Assembly (NCBI GenBank): GCA_026393905.1
Contig: JAPKZH010000500.1
Location: 1 to 41,015 of the forward strand
Length of the DNA stretch: 41,015 nucleotides
Direction: 5' to 3'
Source of the DNA: Candidatus Aminicenantes bacterium
GTDB lineage: Bacteria > Acidobacteriota > Aminicenantia > Aminicenantales > UBA4085
Below are positions 1-32,688 of the stretch, piece after piece. The notes under the pieces were generated by a model. The model worked only from the letters and a program-made list of their open reading frames with translations, had not been told where the DNA came from and did not search any database. The first letter of the stretch is position 1. Every line of letters starts with the position of its first letter. Both the position numbers and the translations under genes were made by a program.

Positions 1-486
1 TTTCATGACGGATTTCCACCAGGTCGACTGTATCTTTTTTCGTTTTGATCTCGGGCCGATTATTTGCTTAAATTGACGAGCTTCATCCGGATGACCCATA
101 AAGTATTGAAGCAGCTCCAGCCAGTCCACATAATCCTTCAACTCGCATTTCTTGTTTTCTCCGGTTCTCCCAGAAAACCTGCTTTTATATGAAGCGCTTC
201 TGATGATCGTGTCTACGATATACTTATCAACGAATTTAGCCAGATTCATAGCATGCTCAAATCCCGGCTGTTTGGTGTCGTCATCTTTAGCTATGAGTGT
301 GTGACATCCAAGGCGTTCGGAGTAGCGTTCGCCATTAGCAAAAGTTTTTGATGCATAGACCTTTCCCTCGCCAAGCATCTTTTGTAAAAGCCAGGAAACA
401 CATTTGGGGTCCCAATCATCGATCAATTGCCAATCGATCTTGATAAATTTCAGTTCAGCATCGCGCACCTTTTGAGGCATGTTCAT
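1..486 (-). CDS. hypothetical protein whose 3' end runs off the window (at least 162 codons); by position a candidate immunity or accessory gene for the HET-C-like effector
   Basis: Hand translation of the minus strand from ATG 486-484 (alternative ATG 480-478) gives MNMPQKVRDAELKFIKIDWQLIDDWDPKCVSWLLQKMLGEGKVYASKTF... with no stop down to position 1. It is absent from the ORF track because it has no stop inside the window. No clear SD, no signal peptide, no family recognised. Confidence 0.45.
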   Translation of the reverse strand, partial: MNMPQKVRDAELKFIKIDWQLIDDWDPKCVSWLLQKMLGEGKVYASKTFANGERYSERLGCHTLIAKDDDTKQPGFEHAMNLAKFVDKYIVDTIIRSASYKSRFSGRTGENKKCELKDYVDWLELLQYFMGHPDEARQFKQIIGPRSKRKKIQSTWWKSVMK

Positions 487-645
487 TCTGGTCTGTGTGG
501 CACTGAGAGCTAGTTCGTATTGCTCGCGCTCCTTCTTTGTTTTGGCTTCACGCCAATCCAAGAGAGCAAGGGGATCATCACATTTATCCTCTGGTTTGTT
601 GTGCTCTCCTGGACAGGGACGATCGACACGCCCGCATTTCCATGT

Positions 646-1845
646 TCATTGCGGACACGTGTGCTTTTTTCTGCTGTGGATGCCTTGACATCCTTTTGCC
701 CCGCAATTCCACTTATGGTTTTCTTTATCAGGGCAGGAATCTTCCGGCTTTTCATGGCCCGGACAGGGCGGGTCAACCCGGCGGCAATACCAGGTCCCCG
801 AGGGACAAACGTGGTCACGACGCATATGGCCGCCGCAATCTCGAGCCCCACACGTCCACTTATGTGGCTTTCTATTTGGATGACTCTCTAAGGATGTTAA
901 AAATCCTTTATAGAGTTGGGTAAGACTGAAGCGCGTATCCATTCCATCGAAGAACCCTCCCACTACGTGTGTCTCATCCTCTTTTTCTTTTCCCTCCCCC
1001 GACGGTTCCTCATCTTTTATACGCGGCTTGAGATCTCGCCACAGTCGTCTTTGATGTCTCCGGAGCAAGTCGGGATCTTTAGGGATGTCATTGATCGAAC
1101 GCATAGCAAAATCCACATAATTCGTATGAGCCCAGTAGTCCTCAGCTGTATGAAGTGCGTATCCAAACTCTGCAAGCAGGTCCGATCGACTTTTTTTGAT
1201 TGGATCTGGTTCTCCTTGCGCATTCATGAACTTTACGAGATCGCGCTCGACCAGAGTCAATATCTCCGCTATATTCAAAATGTGATCCTCTATAAATTTA
1301 TAAACTTTCTTTGAATCTGAAAATCCTTTTCGGTCTATGGGCCAGCGATCAAAATGCTCATGAGGAAAATATTGTGAAAAGCGGCTTATGCTCCCTCCGA
1401 CTTTTTTCCCATGGAAAATGCGGTCGTACTCGTCAAAGCTAATTGGTCCGGCGCCCAAGTGGACAAGGTTTTTTGAGGGGCCCTCCGGCGAACAGAATTC
1501 AACCCAACCGGCTACATAAGCGACGTTTTTAAACCATTGCGCCATAGCTGAATTGACCGGAGGCGGATTGCCCAGGAGCTCACGGATGAGTTTGTTCGCC
1601 CTCCAGTGTATGGCGATGTCCGGCACAAGATATCGAAAAATCCAGCTTTCTTTATTTTTGTCGTCGACACCCTTGTTTCTGGCATCCGTCATATTAGCGG
1701 CATAATCAACGGGGGCAACACCTTGCGACACGTCCGTAAGCCAGTTGCCGAGCAAAAGATAGCCGAGATTTTCATTAGGAAATGCCTCTCGTAACTTAGG
1801 GAGACACGCTTCTATGCCGATTATTTTGTGGTTTTTTGGGACCAT
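646..1845 (-). CDS. HET-C-like domain protein with a Cys/His-rich C-terminal tail; putative T6SS effector (predicted phospholipase C / nuclease-like fold)
   Basis: 399-aa ORF starting at ATG with a GAGGAGAG SD upstream, ending at TGA. GNWLTDVSQ (aa 33-41) and HTAEDYWAHTNY (aa 232-243) match the HET-C signatures as I remember them. No signal peptide. The last ~78 aa contain 9 Cys and two HKW[TN]CGA..C.G.H.R..H.CP repeats. It is co-directional and lies 29 nt after the preceding cargo gene. Confidence 0.65.
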   Translation of the reverse strand: MVPKNHKIIGIEACLPKLREAFPNENLGYLLLGNWLTDVSQGVAPVDYAANMTDARNKGVDDKNKESWIFRYLVPDIAIHWRANKLIRELLGNPPPVNSAMAQWFKNVAYVAGWVEFCSPEGPSKNLVHLGAGPISFDEYDRIFHGKKVGGSISRFSQYFPHEHFDRWPIDRKGFSDSKKVYKFIEDHILNIAEILTLVERDLVKFMNAQGEPDPIKKSRSDLLAEFGYALHTAEDYWAHTNYVDFAMRSINDIPKDPDLLRRHQRRLWRDLKPRIKDEEPSGEGKEKEDETHVVGGFFDGMDTRFSLTQLYKGFLTSLESHPNRKPHKWTCGARDCGGHMRRDHVCPSGTWYCRRVDPPCPGHEKPEDSCPDKENHKWNCGAKGCQGIHSRKKHTCPQ

Positions 1846-1874: not shown

Positions 1875-2738
1875 TTATGGCTCCTCTTCGAACTCTGGAA
1901 AATTTAGAACATATGATCCCGGAATGACCCCGTCAACTTTAGCATAGCCTTTATCATCGAGTGTTCCCTGTATTTCCGAACCGTCGGCAAGCTTGATGAC
2001 ATATTTGGCCCCGCTGATCGGCTCACGAGACTCGTGGAAGAGCTCAATCTCGATCCAATCCTTGAACTCCAGAAGCCCCGAATCGGCCGCCAACTCACCG
2101 AATTTTACACGGAAAAAGTACTCCGGTGGATTGTACTTATTGCCATACTTCTTCAACTCTTCTTCAGTCGGGATTTCATCCGTATCTTCAAAATATTCAT
2201 ATTCCCAATCCGCTTCGACCTTACTGTTCTTGACCAAAACCGGGAATTTAGTGATGAAATCATGAGCGTCATCAGAATCATGTTCCCAAATCTCGATTTC
2301 ACCTTCTGTGCCGTCTTGGACACCCTTCACGTCCGCCGTGAGCTTGAGGATGTCGCCCCGGCGGGCTTCTTTTTTGTCCCATTTGGCATTGGTAATTTCA
2401 ATCGGCGGCAGAACAATCAAGGGATTAGACTTCATTTGCAAGCCGTGCTTGGGCAACTTTACATCAGCATAAAGCGCCTGTTTGGCTTCTGCCGGCACCT
2501 TGATTTGTGTCCAGAACCGGTTTCCCGAGATTTTTTCTGCATACTTTCCAAACGTTTTGCCGTTTTGATCTGATAATTCGATTTCAATTTTCGAACCATT
2601 GCCAACGAACTGTGTATAAATTTCCAATCCAATCGATCCGCCCGGTGCGGCCCTTCTCACCGTCCACAGGACGCATTGGATAGCCGAGGGAAGCTGGACC
2701 TTCTTGATTTGGTCGGTCGGACTCTGATGCTTGGACAT
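1875..2738 (-). CDS. beta-sandwich repeat protein paralogous to the C-terminal extension of the PAAR protein; possible adaptor or co-secreted cargo
   Basis: 287-aa ORF, ATG start, TAA stop. By hand alignment aa 113-287 match aa 197-363 of the PAAR protein at roughly one-third identity. Shared strings include AKW.K....G...KLTA..G...GT.G, K.EA.WEY, PE..F, SGLL...DWIE, KY...L..G....G.LD..G.AKV...IPG. Confidence 0.7.
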   Translation of the reverse strand: MSKHQSPTDQIKKVQLPSAIQCVLWTVRRAAPGGSIGLEIYTQFVGNGSKIEIELSDQNGKTFGKYAEKISGNRFWTQIKVPAEAKQALYADVKLPKHGLQMKSNPLIVLPPIEITNAKWDKKEARRGDILKLTADVKGVQDGTEGEIEIWEHDSDDAHDFITKFPVLVKNSKVEADWEYEYFEDTDEIPTEEELKKYGNKYNPPEYFFRVKFGELAADSGLLEFKDWIEIELFHESREPISGAKYVIKLADGSEIQGTLDDKGYAKVDGVIPGSYVLNFPEFEEEP

Positions 2739-2753
2739 GGACTTAACAGTATT

Positions 2754-4028
2754 TTATTGAAGGCAAAATATTTTTCGAACTCCAGCCAAATAGACTCTGC
2801 CGTCTTCATCCATGACGGGACGACAGGTGACCGGGTCATCGAGTTGAACCTTGCAGAGTTCTTTGCCTTCTGCCGAAATATGATAAAAAAGCACTCCGCC
2901 TGCAACGAGCACCGAACCGTCCTTCAAGACGGAGATCAATGCTTTTCCCGGCTCGACAACGAGCCCCCGGTTCCAGAGCTCCTGCCCTTCCTTGAAGCAA
3001 AGAAGCCGGTTTTTCTCCATTATATAAACCCTTCCATCCGGGTGGCTTGCCGGTGGCTGGCCTGTGAGCGTTGCCCTTCCTAGAGGGGCCTCCCAGCCTG
3101 GGCTTCCATCCCGGAGAATCATTTTCAGAATAAAGCGTTCTTCTCTGTCCTCCCTGTATTCCTGATGTTCGATAAGGAGCACATTGCCTTGGTAGTCTAG
3201 GGCACAAGAAACGACTTCTTCAAAAGGCACAATTCTTACCCCCGCCTCAGAATTCGCCTTGGGATCAAGGAGATAGATCTCAGTTGTCCGGGGTATACAA
3301 ACGAAACTCAGACTTTTGTCTAACAGCGCGTCTAAGGCAAATCCTTGCCCAACAAACTCCCATTCGATATTTCTTGGTTCAACATTCAGCCTAATGAATG
3401 TCCAAAAGGGACCCTGCGCTTTCTGCCCCGGTTCGCTGACAGGAGAAGGCGAGGTTTGATAGGAATAGATCATGCTTCCGTCCAGTCTCTGGCTCATAAA
3501 AAGGAAGGTCTTGCTTCCCAAAAAAGGGAGCGAAAGTTTTTTTGAGGGATGCCCTTCCAGGTTGATGATCTCATAATAGCCAGCCTGATCCAAGGTCACA
3601 AGTCCTTCTTTCTTCAGGTCAAAGGCATAATTGGAGAAGACTTCACGGTGCCAGAGCGGCCGGCCTGACATGCGGTCACGAACATCGAAGACGGGGCCAT
3701 AACTTATGATGAGATGGGTCTTTGTGAGGGCGATGGTTCGCGGCGGCATCGGATTCTTGCCGAGAACCGTCTCCTGTTCCCAAGCCTTAGTCCCCTTGAG
3801 CTTCTTGGCCACATCGAGATAGGAAGTGTTTTGAGTATCCCCATATATCTTCGTGTTAAGAAAAATTGCCTCGGCCATTTTCCCCTCCTGACATCCTGTA
3901 TGAATGATTCCGGCGGCGGCCCCAAACAGAATGACCCCGGTCAGACACGCTGCCAGGATTTTGCCCGTTTGTTTCTCCATGGGCTGGAATCCATTCCAGT
4001 CCGCTGAACGCGACCTCCCACGATTCAT
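2754..4028 (-). CDS. N-terminally membrane-anchored (or lipoprotein) beta-propeller-like protein (PQQ/BamB-like repeats); candidate immunity protein
   Basis: 424-aa ORF, ATG 4028 (alternative ATG 3980), TAA stop. Hydrophobic segment ILAACLTGVILFGAAAGIIHTGC near the N-terminus. Repeated G.vy......l.c....G..lW-type strands (DGRVYIMEKNRLLCFKEGQELW, DGSVLVAGGVLFYHISAEGKEL, DGRVYLAGVRKIFCL). It starts 18 nt after the 1156-aa gene. Confidence 0.6.
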   Translation of the reverse strand: MNRGRSRSADWNGFQPMEKQTGKILAACLTGVILFGAAAGIIHTGCQEGKMAEAIFLNTKIYGDTQNTSYLDVAKKLKGTKAWEQETVLGKNPMPPRTIALTKTHLIISYGPVFDVRDRMSGRPLWHREVFSNYAFDLKKEGLVTLDQAGYYEIINLEGHPSKKLSLPFLGSKTFLFMSQRLDGSMIYSYQTSPSPVSEPGQKAQGPFWTFIRLNVEPRNIEWEFVGQGFALDALLDKSLSFVCIPRTTEIYLLDPKANSEAGVRIVPFEEVVSCALDYQGNVLLIEHQEYREDREERFILKMILRDGSPGWEAPLGRATLTGQPPASHPDGRVYIMEKNRLLCFKEGQELWNRGLVVEPGKALISVLKDGSVLVAGGVLFYHISAEGKELCKVQLDDPVTCRPVMDEDGRVYLAGVRKIFCLQ

Positions 4029-4046: not shown

Positions 4047-7000
4047 TCAGAACTCCTCCAGCGAAAAATTTTCGCCTAAGCTGCTCAATTTGTTATTCAC
4101 CCAATCTCTCAAGAAGGCGAAGGCGGCCTTCCACGTCGTCTGGGCGTTGAGGAAATAAGTGACCAATTGATCGGCGGTCGCATCATTATAGACCGTGACT
4201 GTCCCTGCCGCATTAGGAAAAAAATCCCCAGTACCGGGATAGTTGGTCTTCAGAAATTCAAGGATATAATGTTGGCCCGTTGAAGTGGCACTATCCGTGA
4301 AACCGGGCAAGAAATGAATATAGATATTCTTCATGTCATGAGCGCCGTCCTTGAGACGATAATGGCCGCCAAAAGCCAGCCATTTCTGATGAATATCATA
4401 AACCCTCATCCGTTTCTGCACATTCGTCCATGCGCCATGAGAGAAATCAACCCTGAGCAGGACCCGGACAACAAGAACACCTTGATATTGGATGGGCTCT
4501 TGATTCAGATGAAAATATTTGATCGACGACTCATCTTTGCCAACATCATAGAGCTCAAGGCTCAGCCTCCGCAAGGGCGTGGCCGTTAATCGATAAGCCT
4601 TTTCGCTCTCAATCGGATCCGTCATTTTATCCTTTATTGTAGGCTGCCCGGCGGCCCCGATTTTTCTTGTATAAGTAATATCCCAGGAGTCTCGGACCAG
4701 CCTGGCAACGAAGGTTTTCCCGCCCAGTTTTTGCGATAACAGAGAAGAAGCGGTCTGGATTTCTCGATTAATTTTGTGCAGCGCATACCACAGATGGTGC
4801 AAACGGGGAGCGGCATTCCGGTACATCATTGACGGAAAATTGGCTTCCATCGAATAGGGGATGTAATACTGCTCCAAGTCAGGAAAGCTCTGCTTGTTGG
4901 GTTCCGGGCGATAACTGTCTTTGACATATTCATCGGGCTTGCCTGTCGCATGGCCCAGCTCATGAGCAAATGTATGAGCGCCATATTGGTCGCCATGCTC
5001 TGTTACAGGCACTCCGGTAAAAATATCATTCCAGCATTTATAGCCAGACTTGTTGAGCTTGAACAGAGAATAATGCGTGGGTCCTTCATTCCGGATGCTC
5101 CACTGCCAGGCGTCTCCCCAATGGCCGTTTTCGTCACCGCTGACAAGGGCCAAAAACTTGGATCTTCCCCCTAAAGCCGTCTGTTGAGCTGTTTTAAGAT
5201 TCGCATGGTTGAACAGCATGACATGGTTGGAAGCAGGATTATCGGCCGGCCTTTTTTCAAAGTCGATTTTGAATCCTCCCGGAGGAACAGTGACCGAGAA
5301 CGTTTCGCGCTCATCATAAATATAGTAAATCCTGATGATTGTCGAGTCTGACGAGTTGGGTCTCTCCTCCAGAAAATACCGTTTTCTATTCCACTCCTCC
5401 ATGGCCAGATAGACACCTTCATCCACATATTTCTGAACATCGGCTTGAGCTGGAACGGCTGGAATGGCTGGAACGGCCGCCGGATCCCGGGTGTCGAGCA
5501 TAAAACTGATGGAAACATGATAAATGGCATAGGAGACAGGATGCGTGCCGTCGAAGTGAAGGTGATGGAAGTAATGAAGGTCATAATCTCCTGTCGAGCC
5601 ATATTGGTCATCGACGAAAAGCATCGTATAAAGCAGATGATAATCCCTATCGTTCCGGACAGCCGCTCTGGCTCCCACGACAAACCCCTTCTTTTCCCAA
5701 TCCGGCGCCAGCGGTGTTCTTCTGCCTCCGATGGTATAAAAACCATCTCGAAAAAAAATGATTTTGGCCCCCTTCCTCACTTCGGGATTCCCCACGACGA
5801 GATTCCTGGGAAATGAAATTCTGGAAGAGGCCAACGTGTTTGGATCCGGTTGGTAGAGCTTTAGGAATCCAGTTGCCTCGTCCATCAGGATGATTCTTAT
5901 CCGGGAGACCGAGGTCCTTCCGCTCTGGCTGAGGTCCATGGCCACAGCGGGAATTTCGTGATTGGCGTCCTTGATATCTTGGGTCCCGCTGATGCCGTCT
6001 AAGAGGACAATATCATCCAGACAAAAAATCAGAGGATTGCCGGTATCTGTCGTGCCCTGCCCTAGGGGTTTCAATTTCTTTTCCTGTTCAAATACCTTTT
6101 CAAATCGCTCGCTCTTGCCTGTCGCAAGATCTCCATCATAATAGGTCCAATAATTCCGGGAAGACCAAAGGGCGGGAAGATCATAATAATGCGTTCTCTG
6201 TTCCAGGCTAAGGTTCTTGATCTCGGCTGGAGTTTTGGTGACGATGACTGGCGTAGCGCCTTTTTTTTCCGTATAAACCCACTGGTTTTCAGTCTTGAAT
6301 TCGAAGTGGAGGCTCTTATGTTTGCCATCGTCAAGGGGCGATTTGAAATGGACTTTGAGACAATAAACCCCCTTCTTCCATGATCCCTTCGTCTGGAGTT
6401 CCTCAGTCTCATTTTCAAACGCCTGGATCTTCAATCCCTCCGGAACCGCGGTTACCGCGTTCTCGACGCTATTAAAAAATTGAAAGCTTAGGTGGTAGAC
6501 GACGGCGTAGAGGTCGAGAGCGTCGATGTAGTGAGGTTCAAAATGGAGTTTGTAATAGAGGGGACAGACTTCGGCCTTGTGGGTGGATTTGACGTCGGCC
6601 GGGCAATCCATATAGGGAGCTTCTTTGCCCTCAAAGAAAAGGATCTCCACCCGGCGGTTTCTTTGGGAGCGGTAATTCGGTTTCTCCTTCTGGTCGATGG
6701 GAAAGGATTCGCCGCAGCCGACGACCTTGCGCTGGACATCGACCCATTTGTTTGGATCCTCCCGAAGGATCCTCCGGCGATTCTCCACACCGTCCTTCGT
6801 CTCCATAAAGATGCGGGCCATTTCCGCGCTATAGAGCTCAAAGACCGCCTTCCAGAGATCTTTTGTCCATCGCTTTTGACCATCCTTCTCAACTGTTTCA
6901 TGAAGGAGAGAAGAAAGAGGAGGGAGCTTCGGGTCCTGCTTTTCCGCAAAGTCTGTATTATAAGATTCGACAAAATTCCTGATGGCTTCCTTGGTCTTCG

Positions 7001-7517
7001 CGTTCCAGCTGTCGTTGATATCGCCGGGATCGCAGGGCCATTTATACGGCGCATTGTCGGCGAAATACTTAAGAATTTGCTGGTAGTCCTCGATCTTCTG
7101 TTTTTCATAGCAGATGTCCGCCCAGCGGTCTCCCTCCCCCGTCACGAGGCAGAGGACATTTTGGGCCCGGAGCTTCGAAAGTGCAAAATTGTAGTCGGGC
7201 TGGCCGGAAGTATCCGTATGGCCGGCGATGATCATCTTTTTGTCCGGGTAGAATTCGAAGTGCTTAAAAACAAGGGCGAGGGCTTTGATCCCGGTGATGT
7301 TTTCCTGGCCGTCGGGCGCCTGGCTGCCGTCCTTGGAGGATTTCCCCTTGGGATTTTCGGGCATCATCACAGCGCTGTTGTGGTGGAAGAGGACATCTTC
7401 CATCTCGAGGATGTAGACCTGGACGCGCCGGAGCGTGAACTCGTAGGTCTGATGGCTGTAGGTAAAGACCTTGCCCAAGAGATCCCGGCAAATGACGTCT
7501 CTTTTAAGGGAGCCCAA
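4047..7517 (-). CDS. large signal-less protein with an N-terminal OmpA-like peptidoglycan-binding domain and a C-terminal HExxH zinc-metallopeptidase motif; putative T6SS effector
   Basis: 1156-aa ORF starting at TTG 7517, 17 nt after the PAAR stop, ending at TGA. OmpA_C-like signatures: FHHNSAVMM, IIAGHTDTSGQPDYNFALSKLRAQNV, NRRVEILFF. HTFAHELGHATGKPDEY sits at aa 848-864, with HELGH encoded at nt 4950-4964. No N-terminal hydrophobic segment. Confidence 0.75.
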   Translation of the reverse strand: MGSLKRDVICRDLLGKVFTYSHQTYEFTLRRVQVYILEMEDVLFHHNSAVMMPENPKGKSSKDGSQAPDGQENITGIKALALVFKHFEFYPDKKMIIAGHTDTSGQPDYNFALSKLRAQNVLCLVTGEGDRWADICYEKQKIEDYQQILKYFADNAPYKWPCDPGDINDSWNAKTKEAIRNFVESYNTDFAEKQDPKLPPLSSLLHETVEKDGQKRWTKDLWKAVFELYSAEMARIFMETKDGVENRRRILREDPNKWVDVQRKVVGCGESFPIDQKEKPNYRSQRNRRVEILFFEGKEAPYMDCPADVKSTHKAEVCPLYYKLHFEPHYIDALDLYAVVYHLSFQFFNSVENAVTAVPEGLKIQAFENETEELQTKGSWKKGVYCLKVHFKSPLDDGKHKSLHFEFKTENQWVYTEKKGATPVIVTKTPAEIKNLSLEQRTHYYDLPALWSSRNYWTYYDGDLATGKSERFEKVFEQEKKLKPLGQGTTDTGNPLIFCLDDIVLLDGISGTQDIKDANHEIPAVAMDLSQSGRTSVSRIRIILMDEATGFLKLYQPDPNTLASSRISFPRNLVVGNPEVRKGAKIIFFRDGFYTIGGRRTPLAPDWEKKGFVVGARAAVRNDRDYHLLYTMLFVDDQYGSTGDYDLHYFHHLHFDGTHPVSYAIYHVSISFMLDTRDPAAVPAIPAVPAQADVQKYVDEGVYLAMEEWNRKRYFLEERPNSSDSTIIRIYYIYDERETFSVTVPPGGFKIDFEKRPADNPASNHVMLFNHANLKTAQQTALGGRSKFLALVSGDENGHWGDAWQWSIRNEGPTHYSLFKLNKSGYKCWNDIFTGVPVTEHGDQYGAHTFAHELGHATGKPDEYVKDSYRPEPNKQSFPDLEQYYIPYSMEANFPSMMYRNAAPRLHHLWYALHKINREIQTASSLLSQKLGGKTFVARLVRDSWDITYTRKIGAAGQPTIKDKMTDPIESEKAYRLTATPLRRLSLELYDVGKDESSIKYFHLNQEPIQYQGVLVVRVLLRVDFSHGAWTNVQKRMRVYDIHQKWLAFGGHYRLKDGAHDMKNIYIHFLPGFTDSATSTGQHYILEFLKTNYPGTGDFFPNAAGTVTVYNDATADQLVTYFLNAQTTWKAAFAFLRDWVNNKLSSLGENFSLEEF

Positions 7518-7534: not shown

Positions 7535-8626
7535 TTATTTCCGAGGGTCGAGGAAGATCTTCACTTTGCCCGGCGGGATGTCCTTGACTTTGGCGTGTCC
7601 GCTTGAATCGAGTTTCCCTTCCCGGGTCTCGCCGCTGGCCAGATAAAGCTTGTATTTTTTATTGGCCAGGGGATTCCCCTGATCGTCTTTGAAGGTGAAT
7701 TCGATCCAGTCTCGATAGGTGAGCAGCCCCGAACGCGACTCGCAGTTCTCGACGCCGGCCACGAAATAGAATTCGGGGGCCGAATAGGGCTCGTCCTGCG
7801 TTTTCAGGTTCTTTTCCTCCAGAGATTCTTGACGAATAACGTATTCCCACTCGGCCTCGATCTTGTCGCCTTGAACTTGGGTCTCGATGGTCACGTGGAG
7901 AATATCGGGCTTATTAATGTCCCGCCTGAAAACCTGAAAGACGCCTTTTGTTCCGTTTTCGAACCCGATGGTTTCGGCCGTCAGCTTGACCTTCTCTCCG
8001 ACTTCGGGATTGTTTTTTGACCACTTGGCGCTGTGGACGCTGAATAGCTGAGCATTACACTGGCCGGCGTTCAATGCATCGCGGCAGATCCGGCCGTCCG
8101 GCTTCAAAACTCCCTTTGACTCTTTGCCACTAGGGTCGGTAAATTTGTAATGAACGCCGCTGACCGGTTTGCCGGCTTTATCGACGAACTCAAACTCGAC
8201 CCAGTGCTCTGCTTTCGTCGAAGCTTCCTTGTTATCAGAAAGCGCTGTAGCGGCGGCGATATGCGCTGCGGCTGCAGAACTAAGGCCGACTTTGATCGGT
8301 CCCGGCCCTGCGGCGGCTCCAGCCATTGTCTCACCGATCAGGACCGTAAAACAGCCTAGGGCAATCATATCCGGGGGCCCAACGCACATAGCCATGTCTC
8401 CCATTCGTGCGGCCGGCATCCCGCCAATCAAAACTCCAAAACTCCCCAGGATGACAGGTCCCCCGACATGAGGAATGGGGGGAACGCCTGGAGTGAGCAT
8501 CGGGCAGACATGCATATCTGATATCCGCGCGGCCGGCATCCCGCCGATGAGGACGGTCGGCCACCCCATGACGATCGCCCCGCCATGGGCCGTCATATCG
8601 CCGATTCGCGCCGCCGGTTTTCCCAT
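7535..8626 (-). CDS. PAAR-domain spike-tip protein with a ~260-aa C-terminal beta-sandwich (transthyretin/carboxypeptidase-regulatory-like) extension
   Basis: 363-aa ORF starting at ATG with an AGGAAGGAGAG SD, ending at TAA. Three PAAR motifs (KPAARIGD, MPAARISD, MPAARMGD) lie within aa 1-100 and are followed by an Ala/Gly linker. Two W[IV]EF.F.D..G.P......Y.......G....G.L...G modules follow. It lies immediately downstream of vgrG. Confidence 0.9.
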   Translation of the reverse strand: MGKPAARIGDMTAHGGAIVMGWPTVLIGGMPAARISDMHVCPMLTPGVPPIPHVGGPVILGSFGVLIGGMPAARMGDMAMCVGPPDMIALGCFTVLIGETMAGAAAGPGPIKVGLSSAAAAHIAAATALSDNKEASTKAEHWVEFEFVDKAGKPVSGVHYKFTDPSGKESKGVLKPDGRICRDALNAGQCNAQLFSVHSAKWSKNNPEVGEKVKLTAETIGFENGTKGVFQVFRRDINKPDILHVTIETQVQGDKIEAEWEYVIRQESLEEKNLKTQDEPYSAPEFYFVAGVENCESRSGLLTYRDWIEFTFKDDQGNPLANKKYKLYLASGETREGKLDSSGHAKVKDIPPGKVKIFLDPRK

Positions 8627-8654
8627 TCTCTCCTTCCTCGCTCTGAACGAGCCC

Positions 8655-10844
8655 CTAATTGATCATAACAACGCCGCCCTTAATCGTCGTCATCCCGCTT
8701 CCACTCACATTCGTCATCGGGCTTTCAAGATTGGCCATCAGCCCGCCTTTGGCCTCGAGCATCATGCCTCCCTCGATCTTCGCATTCATATCCGCTTTCA
8801 TTTCAGTATTCAGGCCTTTCAGCTTCAGGTCCATGTTGGCTTTCGCGGAAATGCCCATATCGGCCTTTAAATCGTAATTCGCGCACTTCTCCTTGATATC
8901 GGCGCTCGCTTCCATCTCGTAGTTTCCGCTAGCTTCGCATTTGATGTTGGCCGCCTTGAGCGACGTGTCCGCTGAGGTTTCGATGTTCAGCGTCGTGGCC
9001 TTGATTTCGATCGTCCCGTTCGGCGCGTGCATGTCGATGCTCCCATCCTTTGTCTTGATGACGAGCTTGTTGTTGGTGATATCGATGATGAAGATATTCG
9101 CGTCGGCTTTATCGGCCACGGTGATGCTTTCCCCTCCGCTCGAATCGTCGATGCACAGGCGGTGGCCGTTCTTGCTCTGGACGGTGATCTTGGTGTTTTT
9201 ATCATCCATGATCATCAGGTGGCCGTCGGTCGTCTGAACGGTGATATTCTTGTTTTTGTCATCGAACGTGAACTTGTGTTTCTTGGTGGTCACGATCTCA
9301 ATCTTATCGTCTTTATCATCCAGCAAGACTTTATGGCCATCCGTCGTGGTGATCCCGATTTGAGACTCATTTGTTTTGTCGTCCAGGACGATCTCGTTTC
9401 CCGCGGCCGTACGGATGATGCTTTGAGATTTATTATCTCTGGTCACAGGAGAGACTTGGGAGGGGTTGGGGACCGTGCCAAGGCCGATCGGCCGGTCCAG
9501 ATCTCCGTTGATGCAGGAAAAAATCATTTCTGTATCCGCATGGTTGGGAAAATGGACGCCGTATCCCGGACCAGAATAAGGCTGGATCAGGCGAATCGGC
9601 CGGGAGGCCTCTCCGTTTGTCTTATCACTCAAGTCGAACAAAAGTTTAGCTTTGTAGCGGCCGTGGTCATCGACGAAAGCATATTCATCTCCGGCTCCGG
9701 ATTCTACCCTGGCCGTCATAACGCCCGGGATGGTGGGGACGGGCGTAATCCGAGGTGGACGATACTTGATCTCCATCGGAATCGCCTCAAAAACGTTCTC
9801 GAAGGTGGGGAGGACTTGCTTGGCTTCAGGCAGGATGGCGAACAGACCCCGCTGTGTCCCGCGGGAAACGACTTTGGTGAGGATCAATTCCTTGTCATTC
9901 CAGTCGTCGCGATAGTGTTTTCCCATTTTGAACTTGAAACCCGCCAGGAAAAGCCGGCAATCGCCTCGCCCTTTGAAGATTTTGCTCCGGGACAGGATTT
10001 CCTCGTTCCTCACTTTGGCCAGGAACTCCCCCTCGCGGGTCTCTTTGTAATGATCGCCGTATTCATAATACAGGCCGGGCGCATCCGGGTCGATCTGGCT
10101 CTCCACCGTCAAATCTTTCGAAGGAAAGCGATAGTTGTAATTCTTGAGCCGGACCAGTCCGGTGACGACCTGGGCCTGGTAGGAAATCTCGTCAATCGTC
10201 TCCTTCTGGCTCAAGGGATCACTGTTGGGATTGTAGTAGATATCCTCGGCCTGCTCGATCGACGGCAAGGTATCGTTGGAGTCCGTAAAAACGATCACAT
10301 CGTTCTCGCTGCGATGATCAAAGTAATAGAAAATGCCGTAGTGCTCCAGGCGGCGGTTGATGAAATCAAAATTCGTCTCTCGGAATTGGACGGCGTACTC
10401 GAGATCGGGATAGGATTCTCGGAGGTCAAACTTGTAATCCTGCCCTGAGAAGCCGGAATTCTTGAGGACTTGAGTGACGATCTTCTCGACGTTCATTTTC
10501 TGGAAGACTTCGTTGGCAAACGTCAGCTCCAGGCGCCACATCTTTGGCACGAGCTCGGCATAATACGAGATATAGCGAGGGGTTCTGCCGCGCTGCTCGA
10601 AACGCGAGATGATGCCCTGGATTTTGACCGGATCCTCATCTCCTCTGTTCAGGATAAAGGTGGCCTTTTTATTAAGGATGGCGGCGGGATCAAGCTCCGG
10701 CTCATAAGAAAGGAGTTCGATGCGGTAGATGAAAAGCCGGGAGATCGATTCCTCTCCCTCGAAGGCGAGGACGTGGACAGTATCCTCCGGGAGTCCGCTG
10801 AAGTGGAGTTCAAAGTGAGGTTTATTGTGTTTTGGTTTCGCCAT
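8655..10844 (-). CDS. vgrG: T6SS spike protein VgrG (TssI)
   Basis: gp27/gp5-like sequence with no C-terminal effector domain. The C-terminal beta-helix repeats (ITTTDGHKVLLDDKDDKIEIVT, ITVQTTDGHLMIMDDKNTKITVQS) end in GGVVMIN. I moved the start to ATG 10844 (AGAGAGG SD) rather than ATG 10859. Stop is TAG. Confidence 0.93.
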   Translation of the reverse strand: MAKPKHNKPHFELHFSGLPEDTVHVLAFEGEESISRLFIYRIELLSYEPELDPAAILNKKATFILNRGDEDPVKIQGIISRFEQRGRTPRYISYYAELVPKMWRLELTFANEVFQKMNVEKIVTQVLKNSGFSGQDYKFDLRESYPDLEYAVQFRETNFDFINRRLEHYGIFYYFDHRSENDVIVFTDSNDTLPSIEQAEDIYYNPNSDPLSQKETIDEISYQAQVVTGLVRLKNYNYRFPSKDLTVESQIDPDAPGLYYEYGDHYKETREGEFLAKVRNEEILSRSKIFKGRGDCRLFLAGFKFKMGKHYRDDWNDKELILTKVVSRGTQRGLFAILPEAKQVLPTFENVFEAIPMEIKYRPPRITPVPTIPGVMTARVESGAGDEYAFVDDHGRYKAKLLFDLSDKTNGEASRPIRLIQPYSGPGYGVHFPNHADTEMIFSCINGDLDRPIGLGTVPNPSQVSPVTRDNKSQSIIRTAAGNEIVLDDKTNESQIGITTTDGHKVLLDDKDDKIEIVTTKKHKFTFDDKNKNITVQTTDGHLMIMDDKNTKITVQSKNGHRLCIDDSSGGESITVADKADANIFIIDITNNKLVIKTKDGSIDMHAPNGTIEIKATTLNIETSADTSLKAANIKCEASGNYEMEASADIKEKCANYDLKADMGISAKANMDLKLKGLNTEMKADMNAKIEGGMMLEAKGGLMANLESPMTNVSGSGMTTIKGGVVMIN

Positions 10845-13473
10845 GGCTGCCTCTCTCATTGAAGGTATATTTAAAATTGCCCTCTTTGTCCTTGCCGACT
10901 TTGAGATGCGTCGGCGTTTTTCCCTCGGCCATGAAGCCGAGCAGATAAGTCGCTATATCCGGAGTGATTTTGCGGTCAATGATCGCGTCGATGTTTCTGG
11001 CTCCCGTCTCTGCGCTGGTGCAGGATTCGACAATGTCTTTGATAACGGCTTTGGCAAATTCCACTTCAAGCTTCTGGTTCTCCTTGAGCTTGCGGCTGAT
11101 TCGGGAAAGCTTCAGCTCCACAATTTGCTTCAGGACGTCCTGGTTGAGAGGGAGGAGAAGAATGGGCTTGACGCGGCCGAGAAACTCGGGCCGGAAATGC
11201 TGGATGAGATAGGGACGCATCTCTTCCAGAAGCCCATCGGGAGAAGTCACTCCCTGCTCGATTTTTTTAAAGATGACCTCCGAAGCCAGGTTGGAAGTCA
11301 TGAAGATGATCGTGTTGTTGAAGCTGATCTGCCGTCGCTCCGAATCCTGGAGCATCCCCCGGTCGAAAACCTGCATGAAGAGGTCGATGACGGAGTGGTT
11401 GGCTTTCTCGATCTCATCTAGGAGGACCACGCAATAGGGACGGCGGCGGACCGGCTCGCTGAGCGCTCCTCCTTCTCCGTAGCCGATAAGTCCAGGATCG
11501 GCACCGATGAGGCGCGAGGTGTTGTATTCGTTCTGGTACTCCGTCATGTTCAGGGTCACGATGAACCTTTCGTCTCCGAACAGAGCCTCGGCGACCGCCC
11601 GGGCAAGCTCGGTCTTCCCAACTCCGCTCGGCCCGATGAGGAAGAAAACTCCGATCGGAGCTTCTTCCCTTTTCAGCCCGACTTTTGTCCCCCGGATTAC
11701 GTCCGCGATCTGCTTGATAGCATGGTCCTGACCGATGACTCGCTTCTTAAGCTCTTCCTCCATCTGGAGGATGGTGGCCATCTCGTCCCGAGTCATCTTG
11801 CCGACGGGGATGCCCGTCCAGGACTCGATGACTTCGGCCACAGTCATAGGGGTGACATCGGCAAAGACTTGAGGATGGTCTCCCTGGTACGTTTTGATCT
11901 CTTCGCTGAGAGCCGTGGTGTCTTTCTCGATCTGGACACGGTCAGGGGATTTTGGATCCGCCGCGAATTTTTTTATGCGGAGCTCTCTCAGCTTGTTGAT
12001 GAGTTCAACCTCTTTCTTCCAGCGCTCCTCCTTTTCCTGGATCTCCTTTTCCAGCTGGGATTTTTCTTCGTTCAAGCGCGACAGCTCCTGCGAGTTATCC
12101 ATGATCTTCAGGTCATGATCTTTTTCGAGCGCGGCAATTTTCAGCTTATAGGAATTCAGGTCGCTCAGGAGGAGCGCCAGGCTCGGAGGCCGGCTGGTCA
12201 GCGACATCTTCACCCGGGTGGCCGCTGTATCGAGAAGGTCAATCGCCTTGTCGGGAAGCTGGCGGCCGGCAATGTACTTACGAGAAAGCTTGACGGCGGT
12301 CTCGACGGCGGTGTCGGAGATATGGATTCCGTGATAGGCTTCGTATTTGGTCTTGATCCCCCGGAGCATGAGCATGGCTTTCTCATCATCCGGCTCGCCG
12401 ATATGGATCGGCTGGAAACGGCGTTCCAGGGCGGCATCCTTGGCGAAGTACTTGTTGTATTCGAGATAGGTCGTCGCCGCGACGGCCCGAAAGTCGCCGC
12501 GGGCCAGGGCGGGCTTGAGGAGGTTAGCCGCATCGCCGCCCCCCGCCGACGCACCCGCGCCGACGAGGGTATGAGCCTCATCGATAAACAGGATGGTTTT
12601 ATGGATGGACTTGGTGACCTCGTTGATGACGGCCTTGAACCGCTGCTCAAATTCGCCGCGCATCTTTGTCCCAGCCTGCAGAGCGCCCAGGTCAAGGGTG
12701 TGGATCTGGACATTCTTGAGGACATCGGGGACCTCATCGGCGGCAATTTTGAGCGCCAGGCCTTCGACCACGGCCGTCTTCCCCACTCCCGGCTCGCCCA
12801 GGAGAATGGGGTTTGATTTTTTCCTTCGGCTCAAAACTTCGGTGATCTGGATGATCTCGTCATCGCGGCCCAGGATCGGGTCAATCTTTCCTTCCTTGGC
12901 CTGAGCCGTAAGGTTGGTGGTGTAGATATCGAGCACGCTTCCGCCCGGGGGAATTTCCCTGGCCTGTTCGGCCGGCAGAGTCTCCATGGCAGCCGCCTCA
13001 TCCTCCACCGATCCGGTCACGAACTTGTGAAACTCTGTGGTCAGTTCCTCCTGGTTGATCCTGGAAAGGACATCCATCAACCCGGTGCTGATGATCTGTT
13101 CTGAAGCGATAAAGACCTCAAAGAGAGCGCCCGAACGGATCTTGGTCTCTTTGTGGTGGACGGAGCTTGTGATCCAGGCCTGTTCCAGGAGTTCGGTCAA
13201 CAGGGGAGAGAGCTTGGGCTTTCCCGGATTGCCCGTGGCCATCTCGTCCAGGTTTCGGGTGCAAATCTCCTGGACGCGGCCGGAATCGATGGCATAGTGT
13301 TTCAAGATGAGCGGGACATCTCCCTGTCCGTCCTCGATGAGGGAGTTCAAGAGGTGTTCCATCGTGATTTCGTAGTTTCCTCTCTTGATTCCTATTCCCG
13401 TTGCCGTGTCAAGGTTCCGGATGAGGTGGTTGTTGAGTTTGAGGAGGAGTGCCCTTAGGTCTTTGCTTTTCAT
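10822..13473 (-). CDS. clpV: T6SS AAA+ ATPase ClpV (TssH)
   Basis: 883 aa with a ClpB-like architecture. Two Walker A motifs (GEPGVGKTAVVEGLA, GPSGVGKTELARAVA), a coiled-coil middle region and a ClpV-type N domain. Its end overlaps the vgrG start by 23 nt. Confidence 0.95.
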   Translation of the reverse strand: MKSKDLRALLLKLNNHLIRNLDTATGIGIKRGNYEITMEHLLNSLIEDGQGDVPLILKHYAIDSGRVQEICTRNLDEMATGNPGKPKLSPLLTELLEQAWITSSVHHKETKIRSGALFEVFIASEQIISTGLMDVLSRINQEELTTEFHKFVTGSVEDEAAAMETLPAEQAREIPPGGSVLDIYTTNLTAQAKEGKIDPILGRDDEIIQITEVLSRRKKSNPILLGEPGVGKTAVVEGLALKIAADEVPDVLKNVQIHTLDLGALQAGTKMRGEFEQRFKAVINEVTKSIHKTILFIDEAHTLVGAGASAGGGDAANLLKPALARGDFRAVAATTYLEYNKYFAKDAALERRFQPIHIGEPDDEKAMLMLRGIKTKYEAYHGIHISDTAVETAVKLSRKYIAGRQLPDKAIDLLDTAATRVKMSLTSRPPSLALLLSDLNSYKLKIAALEKDHDLKIMDNSQELSRLNEEKSQLEKEIQEKEERWKKEVELINKLRELRIKKFAADPKSPDRVQIEKDTTALSEEIKTYQGDHPQVFADVTPMTVAEVIESWTGIPVGKMTRDEMATILQMEEELKKRVIGQDHAIKQIADVIRGTKVGLKREEAPIGVFFLIGPSGVGKTELARAVAEALFGDERFIVTLNMTEYQNEYNTSRLIGADPGLIGYGEGGALSEPVRRRPYCVVLLDEIEKANHSVIDLFMQVFDRGMLQDSERRQISFNNTIIFMTSNLASEVIFKKIEQGVTSPDGLLEEMRPYLIQHFRPEFLGRVKPILLLPLNQDVLKQIVELKLSRISRKLKENQKLEVEFAKAVIKDIVESCTSAETGARNIDAIIDRKITPDIATYLLGFMAEGKTPTHLKVGKDKEGNFKYTFNERGSHGETKTQ

Positions 13474-30225: not shown

Positions 30226-32688
30226 TTATTTAAACCTTTGAACCCTGTTGCCTTCGAAGCTGGTGATGAGCAGGCGTCCAAAGCTGTCAAAACAGATGTC
30301 CGCGGGGACCTTAAATTGATCATAGCCGTCCCCATAGCTTCCCTTTCGGCACAACAATACGCCCTCTGGCGTGTATTTCAGGAAGCTGTGATTTTCGACA
30401 TCCGTGACATAGACAAAGCCCGACTTATCAACGGCGACGCCGATCGGACGCCCTGCCACACTGAAGCTTCGATAAAATGCCCCGTCCAAGCTGTAGACGA
30501 GAATTCGTTTATCGGCGTAATCAGCAACGTAGAGACTATTTCGGCCGCTATCGCAGGCGATTCCAAGGGGATCCGCTGAAACAGACCAGCTCTGGATCCA
30601 AGTTAAAGCCGGCGAGAATTTTTGAACGCGCTTATTGTTTCTATCTGTGACATAGATATTGCCATAAATATCAATGGCGATTCCATGCGGCGAATCGAAC
30701 TGTCCATCGCTGCTTCCGAGTCCTCCTATTGTCGCGATCAGATTCCCGTTCGTATCGAATTTCCTAATCCGGTGGTTTCCACTATCCACAACATAAACAA
30801 AACCGCCCATCGTGTCGGCCACGATGCCCCTGGGCTGATTAAGGCCACCCCCGTAGGGTGCTATTATCGGAGAAAATGGTCCTGAGGCCGGGATGAATTT
30901 TTGCACCCTGCTAAGGTCTCCTTCCACGACATGAGCATTGCCGGCATGATCAATTGTTATCCCGATCGGCGCCATAAGCCCGGTTATAACGGCATCGACA
31001 TCGTAGGTCAATTTGGTGATGATGAACGCCGGACTCTCTCCTTTCACGTTCGCGTCGGAAAGATGGGTGATCCTGATCCGGTAATCCGTTCTATCCTCAA
31101 GATCCGGGGAAATCGTCCAGGTGAACGATCCGCTATTCGCGGTATTGTCCACGATCGGAAAATAGGGAGTTGTCCCTTTTAGGAGATCAATCCTGACACT
31201 TCCGGAGACCGTGCTCGTCCATTTGATATCCTTCGTTTCTCCTTTCCCCCAAAAGGTGGTTGACGTCGGCTGGGTGACAACGAGATTGGCGGCCGTGATC
31301 GCGAAGTTGCCGCTTTCGCCATAAATTTTCAGATCCGAAGCGCAGGAAATTCTGATCTTATAATCGGTCCTGTCGGCCGTCGTCGTCGGGACTGTCCAAT
31401 TCTGACTTCCATCATTATCCGTGGAGGATTCGATCGTTTCGACGACATCGGCTCCCTTGTAGAGCTCGATCTTGACTTTCGAGATATCAAGAAGATTGGC
31501 TTTTTGAGCGACACCCGTTCTGCCGGAGCCTTGGCCTGTCTGGGTCGCTTCTGAAGCCGGAGATGACGGGGAACCTTTTCTCTCATAGAGGCTCTGAGCT
31601 CTGATATCTTGAGACCTTAAAGAAAGGTCTGGACGGCCGTTGTCCTTGCCGACTGAGGATGACACGGGATTTTCGCCCTCTCGTTCAGAGCTGATGAACC
31701 CTTTTTTTAAAGCGAGGGCGGAGCCGGATCCTGAGCCTTCAGAATCCATCCTGCTTTTTCCGCTTTCTCTCTGAAAAGCGGAGCGCGTTTGAAAGGCACT
31801 CATCCTTCTGAGGTAAGAAGATTCGTTGGCGAAGTCACTGAATTGGCTTGTCCTTTGGAGGAATCTCAGGCTGGAGCTTGTTCCTGTCTCCCATTTGATT
31901 TCGATGATTTGACCTTTGACCCAAGTGGAGCCGGCAGCAGGCTTCGTCACCCGAATCGGAATGGCGGGCAGAGTGATGTTGAGCGTCGCCGTATTTCCCC
32001 GTTTAACGGAAACCTTTTGTTCATAATCCGTGTATCCATCTTTGACGAGCTTGATCATATGATCGCCCGGAGAGATTTCGGCCAAGGTGCAATTGGTCTT
32101 CCAGCCGGTGTCTGCACCATCGAGGAAGACTTGAGCTGCGGTCGGGGTCGAGCTGACCTGGATATCTCCGGTATCCTCCCTAATAAATAGAAAATAAGCG
32201 GCGGCGCCAACGGCAACGACGACCGCTCCAACCAAAGCAATGCGGCCGATTTTGATGCCGCCCCCTGGTCTTGCTTCACGGGTCGCCACAGTGGGAACCT
32301 CGCCCTGGGCTTGTTTGAACAATGCAACATAATCCGGAGCATACTTGGTCCCATCGATCGTCTTCTTTGGCTCGACCTGGATTGTTTTATTGATAAACTG
32401 TTTTGTGTTCTCTGTATCACCCAACTGGAAATAGCACAGAGAAAGGTAGAAATAGGCCTCGGATAATAAGCGCTTGTTCGGCTTCAGCCCTTCCACCTGA
32501 TTCAGTGTCGTGATAGCTTTTTCGTATTGTCCGCTATTATAAAGATCAATGCCTTCCTTGATCAGCTCATCAGGCTTCTGCTGGGCGCCTGTGAGCGTTT
32601 CGGAAAATGAGGTGTTGGCGAGAAAAAGGAAAAACGCCAAAATGGCCAAATAGGCCGCTTTCTTCGACGCATGATTGGAAATAAACAT
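30226..32688 (-). CDS. multidomain envelope protein: signal-like N-terminus, TPR, TM helix, PEGA domain, two beta-sandwich domains, C-terminal NHL-repeat beta-propeller
   Basis: 820 aa starting at ATG with an AAGGAGGGAGG SD. TPR-like segments (SGQYEKAITTLNQV, AYFYLSLCYFQLGDTENTKQF). TM helix IALVGAVVVAVGAAAYFLFI. PEGA-like segment IQVSSTPTAAQVFLDGADTGWKTNCTLAEISPGDHMIKLVKDGYTDY. NHL repeats (PRGIVADTMGGFVYVVDSGNHRIRKFDTNGN, PHGIAIDIYGNIYVTDRNNKRVQKF and others). Confidence 0.85.
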   Translation of the reverse strand: MFISNHASKKAAYLAILAFFLFLANTSFSETLTGAQQKPDELIKEGIDLYNSGQYEKAITTLNQVEGLKPNKRLLSEAYFYLSLCYFQLGDTENTKQFINKTIQVEPKKTIDGTKYAPDYVALFKQAQGEVPTVATREARPGGGIKIGRIALVGAVVVAVGAAAYFLFIREDTGDIQVSSTPTAAQVFLDGADTGWKTNCTLAEISPGDHMIKLVKDGYTDYEQKVSVKRGNTATLNITLPAIPIRVTKPAAGSTWVKGQIIEIKWETGTSSSLRFLQRTSQFSDFANESSYLRRMSAFQTRSAFQRESGKSRMDSEGSGSGSALALKKGFISSEREGENPVSSSVGKDNGRPDLSLRSQDIRAQSLYERKGSPSSPASEATQTGQGSGRTGVAQKANLLDISKVKIELYKGADVVETIESSTDNDGSQNWTVPTTTADRTDYKIRISCASDLKIYGESGNFAITAANLVVTQPTSTTFWGKGETKDIKWTSTVSGSVRIDLLKGTTPYFPIVDNTANSGSFTWTISPDLEDRTDYRIRITHLSDANVKGESPAFIITKLTYDVDAVITGLMAPIGITIDHAGNAHVVEGDLSRVQKFIPASGPFSPIIAPYGGGLNQPRGIVADTMGGFVYVVDSGNHRIRKFDTNGNLIATIGGLGSSDGQFDSPHGIAIDIYGNIYVTDRNNKRVQKFSPALTWIQSWSVSADPLGIACDSGRNSLYVADYADKRILVYSLDGAFYRSFSVAGRPIGVAVDKSGFVYVTDVENHSFLKYTPEGVLLCRKGSYGDGYDQFKVPADICFDSFGRLLITSFEGNRVQRFK

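Follow-up and report, generated by a model that had tools for sequence, protein, structure and literature searches.

A free-standing paralogue of a PAAR C-terminal extension is a putative cargo adaptor in a type VI secretion cluster of a Candidatus Aminicenantes bacterium

We analysed a 41,015-nucleotide stretch of DNA from Candidatus Aminicenantes bacterium (assembly GCA_026393905.1, contig JAPKZH010000500.1), which is referred to as the window throughout. Searches with Pfam and NCBIfam models identified a complete canonical T6SS-i cluster with every gene on the minus strand, in the order Fha, TssJ, TssK, TssL, TssM, TagF, TssA, TssB, TssC, Hcp, TssF, TssG and ClpV. ClpV is followed by the genes for VgrG, a PAAR protein, a 1156-aa protein, a 424-aa propeller, a 287-aa protein encoded at 1875-2738 (-), which we named p287, and a Het-C-like protein. 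The VgrG spike (8655..10859, minus strand; 734 aa; Pfam Phage_GPD 5e-71) is without a C-terminal extension, and the PAAR protein (7535..8626, minus strand; 363 aa; Pfam PAAR_motif 1.5e-21) carries one behind its PAAR domain (8333-8626) and an Ala/Gly linker. Directly 3' of the PAAR gene lies the gene for a putative effector of 1156 aa (4047..7517, minus strand; Pfam/NCBIfam matches to OmpA, Reprolysin_5 and M6), which combines an OmpA-like peptidoglycan-binding domain at its N-terminus with the metallopeptidase motif HELGH and is without a signal peptide. The adjacent gene encodes a PQQ/BamB-like beta-propeller of 424 aa (2754..4028, minus strand; Pfam PQQ_2 1.3e-5) with a hydrophobic segment at its N-terminus and a Cys; this protein may confer immunity to the 1156-aa effector. 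The open reading frame of p287 (1875..2738, minus strand), which stands on its own and belongs to a T6SS-associated family without a name, is separated by a gap of 29 nt from the gene of the Het-C-like putative effector (1..1845, minus strand; Pfam Het-C 3.5e-5), which runs off the window end.

The AlphaFold2 (AF2) model of p287 (pLDDT 87) comprises three beta-sandwich domains and a low-confidence linker. The N-terminal tail (residues 1-18; 2685..2738, minus strand) was modelled with a pLDDT of 49-74, and despite this low confidence T8, L16 and S18 are conserved in the family alignment. It precedes domain A (residues 19-109; 2412..2684, minus strand), a predicted beta-sandwich whose strands have a pLDDT of about 90, and domain B (residues 114-179; 2202..2399, minus strand), a second beta-sandwich, which is homologous to residues 191-261 of the PAAR protein and is the most conserved domain of the family with a pairwise identity of 0.66-0.97 between loci. 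The acidic linker (residues 180-205; 2124..2201, minus strand; pLDDT 64) reads ...YEYFEDTDEIPTEEELKK...PPEYFF, contains 8 D/E within 24 residues as well as one short helix at 192-197 in the model, and is almost invariant in the family (consensus WEYEYhEDTDdIPT..E.EK.gYNPPEYFFRV). Domain C (residues 206-279; 1902..2123, minus strand) is variable and was assigned as a TTR/prealbumin-like sandwich at the level of the predicted fold only, with weak Pfam matches (SpaA 0.0028, CarboxypepD_reg 0.14) that are both below the gathering score; some p287 homologues reach PF13620 or PF17802.

Domains A and B gave no match in Pfam, NCBIfam or the PDB, be it with the single protein or with the family profile, and PAAR and VgrG domains are absent from p287 according to Pfam and NCBIfam. 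Foldseek searches of PDB and BFVD returned generic tandem Ig/MG/Big-domain proteins only, with TMq below 0.3, and the predicted fold as such gives no functional clue. The sequence contains neither a signal peptide nor a hydrophobic segment, and its first 110 residues include 3 Arg only. Matches to NleH in sequence and profile searches with p287 were chance hits.

In the initial annotation residues 113-287 of p287 had been aligned by hand with residues 197-363 of the PAAR protein, and the coordinates given for the two segments are right, residue 113 starting at nt 2402 and residue 287 ending at 1878, with the PAAR segment corresponding to nt 8038-7538. A global alignment of these segments has 52 identical residues in 167 positions (31%), and both modules are significant separately in a shuffle test (sandwich, z=18.7; C-terminal module, z=25), in agreement with the one-third identity over two consecutive modules that had been described. 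The Smith-Waterman score for p287 and the PAAR protein is 259, shuffled sequences having a mean of 34.9 (sd 4.7), and BLASTP with the full proteins gave E=1e-27 with 29% identity over 225 aa (query 51-274, subject 143-353). When we compared the family profiles, built from 40 p287 and 37 PAAR sequences, with hhalign, the probability was 100% and E=2.2e-48 over 230 columns. Formal pairwise and profile alignment, the check that had been proposed for the hand alignment, thus yields strongly significant similarity, and at the sequence level we regard the homology of p287 and the PAAR extension as certain. The view that the locus encodes the same extension twice, once fused to PAAR and once on its own, is borne out by the BLASTP and hhalign results, and the module of B, linker and TTR domain is present in exactly two copies in the window, one in each protein.

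In its AF2 model the PAAR extension is divided into a TTR-like domain, TTR1 (modelled at residues 143-182 of the segment 142-190; 8057-8203, minus strand), a sandwich, B' (191-261; 7844-8056, minus strand), a linker with one short helix (262-284; 7775-7843, minus strand), and a second TTR-like domain, TTR2 (285-359; 7550-7774, minus strand). Its predicted layout, TTR1-B'-linker-TTR2, corresponds to A-B-linker-C of p287, and hhalign by domain paired B with B' (E=1e-23) and C with TTR2 (E=3e-40), domain C being homologous also to TTR1 (E=1e-13). B' and TTR2 had been recognised before; TTR1 had been missed. Domain A has no counterpart in the PAAR protein. It had been described as an extra N-terminal sandwich repeat, and the AF2 model agrees with a sandwich, but homology of domain A with domain B, and with it the repeat, is not established (hhalign probability 22%, z=2.5).

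Homologues of p287 are numerous: a clustered protein collection holds 677, the best 120 of which are 56-82% identical to p287, mostly 280-295 aa long and in no case named, and a profile search of 1.84 billion representatives gave 248 clusters at E<1e-30. Full-length relatives with 40-80% identity occur across several phyla, and the family alignment has 35 invariant columns, with conservation in A, B and above all the linker and variability in C. A scan of GTDB species representatives detected p287 relatives in at least 104 of them. We read 80 of these loci, all of them MAGs, and used the 64 with at least 6 kb of flank to determine the distance to PAAR; carriers include Ignavibacteria, Zixibacteria, Calditrichota, Krumholzibacteriota, Rhodothermales, Nitrospirae, Desulfosarcina and other deltaproteobacteria. 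Tblastn with the window proteins showed that one gene arrangement keeps returning, (VgrG) - extended PAAR - (OmpA-like effector) - (propeller) - p287 - variable gene. The extended PAAR gene lies upstream of p287 in 53 of the 64 loci, at a median distance of 4.5 kb, and gave partial matches in 5 more. A gene of the 1156-aa type occupies the same place after the extended PAAR in 33 loci, and the propeller gene stands between effector and p287 in 21. Usually there is one p287 copy near the extended PAAR; orphan p287-effector islands away from T6SS genes (L001/L012) and tandem p287-effector pairs (L030, L067) were also found. By sequence and gene context, p287 is a member of a conserved T6SS-linked family, for which our literature search on FCB-group T6SSs found no paper. 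Domains B and C alone form the C-terminus of an Hcp, an Rhs protein and a Dit-like phage tail protein and also occur in giant proteins of many repeats that resemble adhesins and contain numerous CarboxypepD_reg domains; their presence on phage tail and multi-repeat proteins fits a general binding or decoration module.

The gene after p287 is co-directional in almost every locus and follows at a gap of about 20 nt or with a 4-nt overlap. By BLAST, those of the 80 loci can be sorted into about 30 families that are unrelated to one another, most of them without a Pfam match. Those recognised by Pfam (OmpA + PG_binding + C39-like peptidase, calcineurin-like phosphoesterase (Metallophos), metallo-beta-lactamase fold, GH5, protein-arginine deiminase, SH3_3) are, as judged from their domains, enzymes typical of T6SS effectors. 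In many representatives the complete p287 module is instead the N-terminal part of a longer toxin-like protein, fused to a phage lysozyme (P0127), a PG_binding_1/M74-like part (P0137), OmpA-like parts (P0124, P0166), amidohydrolases (P0189, P0212) or a metallo-beta-lactamase (P0163). The C-terminal portions of such fusions are homologous over their full length to genes found unfused 3' of p287 in other genomes, as in P0124 and L025 (42% over 735 aa), P0166 and L043 (47%), P0146 and L082/L074, and P0163 and L030. The fused part of P0209 matches the L008 gene downstream of an extended PAAR, and effectors of the OmpA type follow both carriers, p287 and the extended PAAR. Fused forms of p287 retain domain C though a tether is then unneeded, an observation that counts against a role as adaptor.

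Domain C co-varies with the downstream gene. In pairwise statistics on phylogenetically non-independent locus pairs, domain C of pairs with at least 80% identity in A-B-linker averages 45% identity if the effectors differ versus 93% if they are the same, and over all listed pairs at or above 70% the values are mostly 0.3-0.6 versus 0.68-0.98. The tandem copies of L030 are nearly alike in A (.91), B (.91) and linker (.98) and reach.50 in C, a different gene following each. Two exceptions were noted: L024 and L025 have a downstream gene of a common BLAST family, the match being 36% over 41% of the protein, and a domain C identity of only 0.46, and L059 and L080 have different downstream genes with a domain C identity of.86.

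The most direct comparison is that with L088, a near-identical strain whose 1156-aa and 424-aa proteins are 97% and 99% identical to those of the window. The DNA of the two is about 100% identical down to position ~2520, i.e. p287 codon ~73; beyond it identity decreases to 83-92%, to 75-82% and then, from ~2158, the start of domain C, to <=60%, and in L088 p287 is followed by unrelated genes for 131 aa, 525 aa and a DcrB-like protein. This shows a recombination breakpoint inside p287 and, as the identity pattern coincides with unrelated downstream genes, that domain C and effector have been exchanged together as one cassette. The conserved 5' part of the p287 gene may act as the homology arm for such an exchange. 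The PAAR extension behaves in parallel, the PAAR domain being conserved and linker and TTR2 changing with the downstream gene: L013 and L018 are.98 identical in PAAR and.57 in TTR2, and the window and L005, with ClpV 99% and VgrG 98% identical, have values of.90 for PAAR,.89 for TTR1,.58 for B' and.63 for TTR2.

As a check of the prediction that domain C foretells its partner, we inspected the three homologues with the most window-like domain C and a readable contig, and in 2 of 3 a Het-C-like gene is next (L004 and L085, 62-63% identity to that of the window); in L086, whose domain C is 0.59 identical to the window's, no Het-C-like gene was detectable downstream. The Het-C-like gene of the window has an in-frame TGA at 646-648. 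Its homologues have 766-775 aa, and tblastn with those of L004 and L085 aligns through the TGA with 62-63% identity over about 617 aa; the extent given to the gene in the initial annotation was thus too short, homology continuing past the in-frame stop. Recoding of the TGA was rejected, TGA ending 8 other genes of the window. Owing to this stop the p287/Het-C-like pair of the window may be inactive. The Het-C-like protein as a universal partner of p287 was rejected as well, since a search of the 80 GTDB loci gave no such gene and it recurs only in L004 and L085.

Conservation, a polymorphic downstream slot, fusions, co-variation, the natural swap and the parallel behaviour of the PAAR extension make an adaptor that links the downstream effector to the spike, as proposed on first inspection of the sequence, the best-supported reading on purely comparative evidence. 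We consider it fairly probable that p287 acts, as a separate protein, as an adaptor or carrier of T6SS cargo whose TTR-like domain loads the downstream effector and which is probably co-secreted. Binding of domain C to the effector, secretion of p287 itself and its docking are the parts of this proposal that we infer. The conserved N-terminal part, i.e. tail, A, B and acidic linker, would be recognised by the secretion apparatus, A-B-linker acting as a stand-in for PAAR that brings the complex onto the ejected structure, and domain C would serve as the platform onto which the product of the next gene downstream, here the Het-C-like protein, is specifically loaded. TTR2, within the B-linker-TTR module of the PAAR protein, would serve the 1156-aa OmpA-like metallopeptidase in the same manner, so that one spike could carry two cargoes via paralogous platforms. 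This platform role of domain C and TTR2 is suggested by analogy with the TTR extensions of VgrG and PAAR and with the RIX-TTR adaptors. As a secreted adaptor p287 would exit the cell together with its cargo; that it does so is most likely in view of the toxins fused to the p287 C-terminus in relatives, and co-secretion is further suggested by the attachment of the module to secreted PAAR, Hcp and Rhs proteins.

A more elaborate arrangement, which we regard as doubtful, is a daisy-chained spike tip in which TTR2 holds the first effector, TTR1 holds p287 and the TTR-like domain of p287 holds the second effector. The TTR2 socket would grip the N-terminal peptide of the 1156-aa effector and the TTR1 socket the conserved disordered N-terminal tail of p287, the common plug being a short peptide of [KRQ][ST]G type at effector N-termini, and recombination that shuffles a socket plus its toxin would be anchored in the conserved 5' half of either gene, PAAR or p287. 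If this were true, a single PAAR would deliver two unrelated toxins by one reused socket-and-peptide principle.

Instead of travelling with its cargo, p287 might be a cytoplasmic, non-secreted chaperone or adaptor like Tap/Tec or Eag, which stabilises the effector, hands it over and is released. The genomic signature is that of the known adaptors: like Tap/Tec (DUF4123), Eag (DUF1795) and DUF2169 proteins, p287 is encoded by a conserved gene directly 5' of variable effectors and can mark them for effector finding. These adaptors are not normally fused to toxins and are not known to be secreted. In many relatives of p287, however, toxins are fused C-terminally to the complete protein, so that the module must travel along, and the B+C module is fused to secreted PAAR, Hcp and Rhs proteins. 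Moreover, models of DUF4123, DUF1795 and DUF2169 gave no Pfam match in p287 at E up to 1 and none in NCBIfam. We therefore consider a non-secreted chaperone unlikely. A DUF1795/DcrB-like gene separate from p287 is present in related loci.

The shared module might also bind or decorate the target envelope, via carbohydrate or peptidoglycan, and aid attachment to the prey rather than form a cargo socket. B+C on the Dit-like phage tail protein and the giant adhesin-like proteins, the Ig/MG and phage Big-domain proteins among the Foldseek matches, and the many associated effectors that target peptidoglycan are all compatible with such a role. However, domain C changes and swaps with the downstream gene as a unit, which would be unexpected for a binder of the prey surface, and the associated effectors include enzymes that do not act on the envelope (PAD, MBL, Metallophos), making envelope binding quite improbable.

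We give a similarly small chance to p287 as a structural accessory of this T6SS lineage, a partner of spike or PAAR that is needed for assembly independently of cargo. It is about as conserved as core components, the Desulfosarcina locus L029 being 47% identical to the window in p287, 46% in ClpV and 34% in VgrG, and it is usually present as a single copy beside the extended PAAR, but orphan islands and tandem pairs with effectors, the C-terminal toxin fusions and the co-variation of domain C with the effector argue against independence of cargo. Two further readings are highly improbable, namely that p287 is an immunity protein or, as had been offered as an alternative, what is left of a second PAAR cargo cassette in decay. 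In their favour are its paralogy to the PAAR extension and the lack of a PAAR domain. Conservation refutes them for practical purposes: full-length relatives with 40-80% identity occur in several phyla, 35 alignment columns are invariant, domain A is peculiar to the family and the linker does not vary. Moreover, p287 contains neither a signal peptide nor a hydrophobic segment, and it is conserved next to variable neighbours, the reverse of the pattern of immunity genes.

As a secreted cargo adaptor, p287 has its closest analogues among proteins with TTR domains. The TTR domains of VgrG and PAAR, and those of the secreted RIX adaptors, load the downstream effector (PMC10435454, PMC7376260). In Vibrionaceae, RIX proteins serve as secreted adaptors (Kanarek et al. 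2023), e.g. WP_157622110.1, which combines RIX and TTR and occurs with Rte1/Rti1, and in this case the N-terminal ~25 residues of the effector are predicted to complete the TTR barrel (PMC10435454). Like them, p287 is small and free-standing, its N-terminal part being the putative delivery element and its C-terminal TTR-like domain the putative loading platform; the gene directly downstream encodes the putative effector; and the module of platform and effector is elsewhere fused to PAAR or VgrG, the N-terminal part elsewhere to polymorphic toxins. Loading platform, downstream effector and PAAR-fused paralogue are present at the locus, and an immunity gene would lie beyond the window end. In contrast to RIX, which is ~70 aa long and arginine-rich, the N-terminal part of p287 has about 200 aa and consists of two predicted beta-sandwiches and the acidic linker; the 3 Arg in its first 110 residues and the modelled sandwich set it apart from the description of RIX. 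The platform differs as well, being a two-domain B-linker-TTR unit, and so do the hosts, the p287 family occurring in MAGs of the FCB group, Zixibacteria, Nitrospirota and Desulfobacterota. Finally, p287 usually lies within a T6SS cluster with a PAAR-fused paralogue in the same operon rather than as an orphan, and the p287 system is known here from sequence and predicted structure.

TTR 'internal adaptors' have been described for EAEC VgrG1-Tle1 and for P. aeruginosa VgrG2a/2b (PMC7376260). They are effector-specific prealbumin/TTR-like C-terminal sandwiches on a spike protein, a description that the PAAR protein of the window fits, and p287 resembles them in its C-terminal sandwich (AF2) and the co-varying effector gene 29 nt downstream. 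Unlike them, p287 is separate from the spike proteins, fusion being seen in its PAAR paralogue (7535-8626), and the extension in the window is longer (TTR1-B'-linker-TTR2), with a sandwich and a linker not described there. By analogy, p287 would work like RIX adaptors and the TTR internal adaptors of PAAR and VgrG while being a member of neither family. The putative delivery domain, the two-domain platform and the breadth of phyla are new; in principle, RIX proteins have already shown that a secreted adaptor can bear a TTR platform.

Nearly all that is known of T6SS cargo loading comes from work on Proteobacteria, and the known adaptor and marker families leave the T6SSs of Ignavibacteria, Zixibacteria, Calditrichota, Krumholzibacteriota and Desulfobacterota uncovered. 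The p287 family could be a marker for effector discovery in those phyla, the gene after p287 in the 80 loci providing about 30 candidate effector families, most of them without a Pfam match. With fused and free paralogous platforms in one operon, natural domain swaps between near-identical strains and natural fusion proteins, it also offers a natural system for studying the cargo specificity of TTR platforms.

Those members that are fused to toxins share with MIX, FIX, PIX and WHIX proteins the combination of a conserved N-terminal region with polymorphic C-terminal toxins, whereas sequence and predicted fold of p287 differ from all four. WHIX is a bipartite domain with the motif WHxxxH and a cavity that caps the VgrG tail (PMC12135965); the WHxxxH motif is absent from p287, which reads IWEHDSDDAHD instead and is predicted to fold into three sandwiches.

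Comparison of the window with L088, a related locus on a Logan contig, places a recombination breakpoint within the gene for p287, the 287-aa proposed T6SS cargo adaptor (1875-2738, minus strand). In the DNA identity profile of window positions ~2158-2520 versus L088:5001-5858 and their surroundings the two loci are ~100% identical across the genes for the 1156-aa and 424-aa proteins and into p287 as far as codon ~73. Beyond this point identity decays and, once the TTR-like domain C begins, does not exceed 60%; the genes downstream of p287 in L088 are unrelated to those in the window.

A second swap point lies at the PAAR gene and was identified from protein identities between window region 7535-10859 and the related loci L005 and L087. 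ClpV and VgrG of both loci are 99% and 97-98% identical to those of the window, respectively, but PAAR is only 72-75% identical. L087 lacks the genes for the 1156-aa protein and the propeller, with p287 directly following PAAR. In the window the 1156-aa protein (4047-7517), encoded after PAAR, carries an OmpA-like peptidoglycan-binding domain at its extreme N-terminus and a HELGH metallopeptidase motif; no signal peptide was found in this protein. The next gene (2754-4028) encodes the 424-aa β-propeller, whose N-terminus resembles a signal-anchor or a lipoprotein. The two proteins look like an effector-immunity pair, and they diverge rapidly between near-identical strains, with the L005 homologues of the 1156-aa protein and the propeller being 46% and 29% identical to their window counterparts, respectively.

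We scanned the first 40 residues encoded by the genes downstream of p287 in loci L005-L084, comprising 32 families, and found these effector N-termini to be enriched for a short peptide with Ser/Thr-Gly, which often takes the form K/R/Q-S/T-G with basic and alternating hydrophobic residues behind it. Of the 32 families, 27 contain [ST]G (12.3 expected) and 12 contain [KRQ][ST]G (1.7 expected), the motif having been picked post hoc. The Het-C-like protein, which occupies the effector slot directly downstream of p287 in the window, does not contain this motif.

The Het-C-like gene (1-1845, minus strand) is cut off by the contig end and contains an in-frame TGA at 646-648 (minus strand). Homologues from L004 and L085 (766-775 aa) align across this codon without a break, from window position 1845 down to 4, with 62-63% identity over ~617 aa. 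Recoding was ruled out as TGA terminates eight other genes of the window as their ordinary stop codon; the TGA is thus a nonsense mutation or a sequencing error.

In L003, L004, L087 and L088 the effector slot is followed by a DcrB/DUF1795 (Eag-like) gene and then by a gene for an Fha-SLT fusion, irrespective of the effector. The window stops short of this position, and the L085 contig stops after a DcrB-like gene that follows the effector slot. Two loci from deltaproteobacteria, L029 and L030, have a small ORF directly after PAAR that was called DUF1795-like from sequence alone.

Small free-standing ORFs of 117-159 aa directly follow the extended PAAR in L009 (7831-8310; = L003), L018, L050, L053 and L056. 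The L003/L009 ORF matches TTR2 of PAAR (BLAST, E=2e-4), and the other four are TTR-like by eye only, based on the N-terminal sequence. These ORFs may be further detached platforms.

The B+C module, common to p287 and the PAAR extension, was also found in representative proteins from outside the window (P0229, P0232, P0177 and P0121). An Hcp, a Dit-like phage tail protein and an Rhs protein each end in this module, which in the Rhs protein lies behind the RHS core, the usual site of the toxin. One protein of 2313 aa contains up to seven copies.

The T6SS clusters of the window (at 30226-32688) and of L001-L004 are flanked, beside Fha, by NHL/PEGA/TPR proteins, PP2C phosphatases and Ser/Thr kinases with PEGA domains, which suggests that T6SS firing is under threonine-phosphorylation control. 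Finally, L005, the MAG nearest to the window (ClpV 99% identical), bears the label 'uncultured Eubacteriales bacterium', whereas every other relative belongs to the FCB group, Zixibacteria, Nitrospirae or deltaproteobacteria. An error in binning or taxonomy probably accounts for this label.
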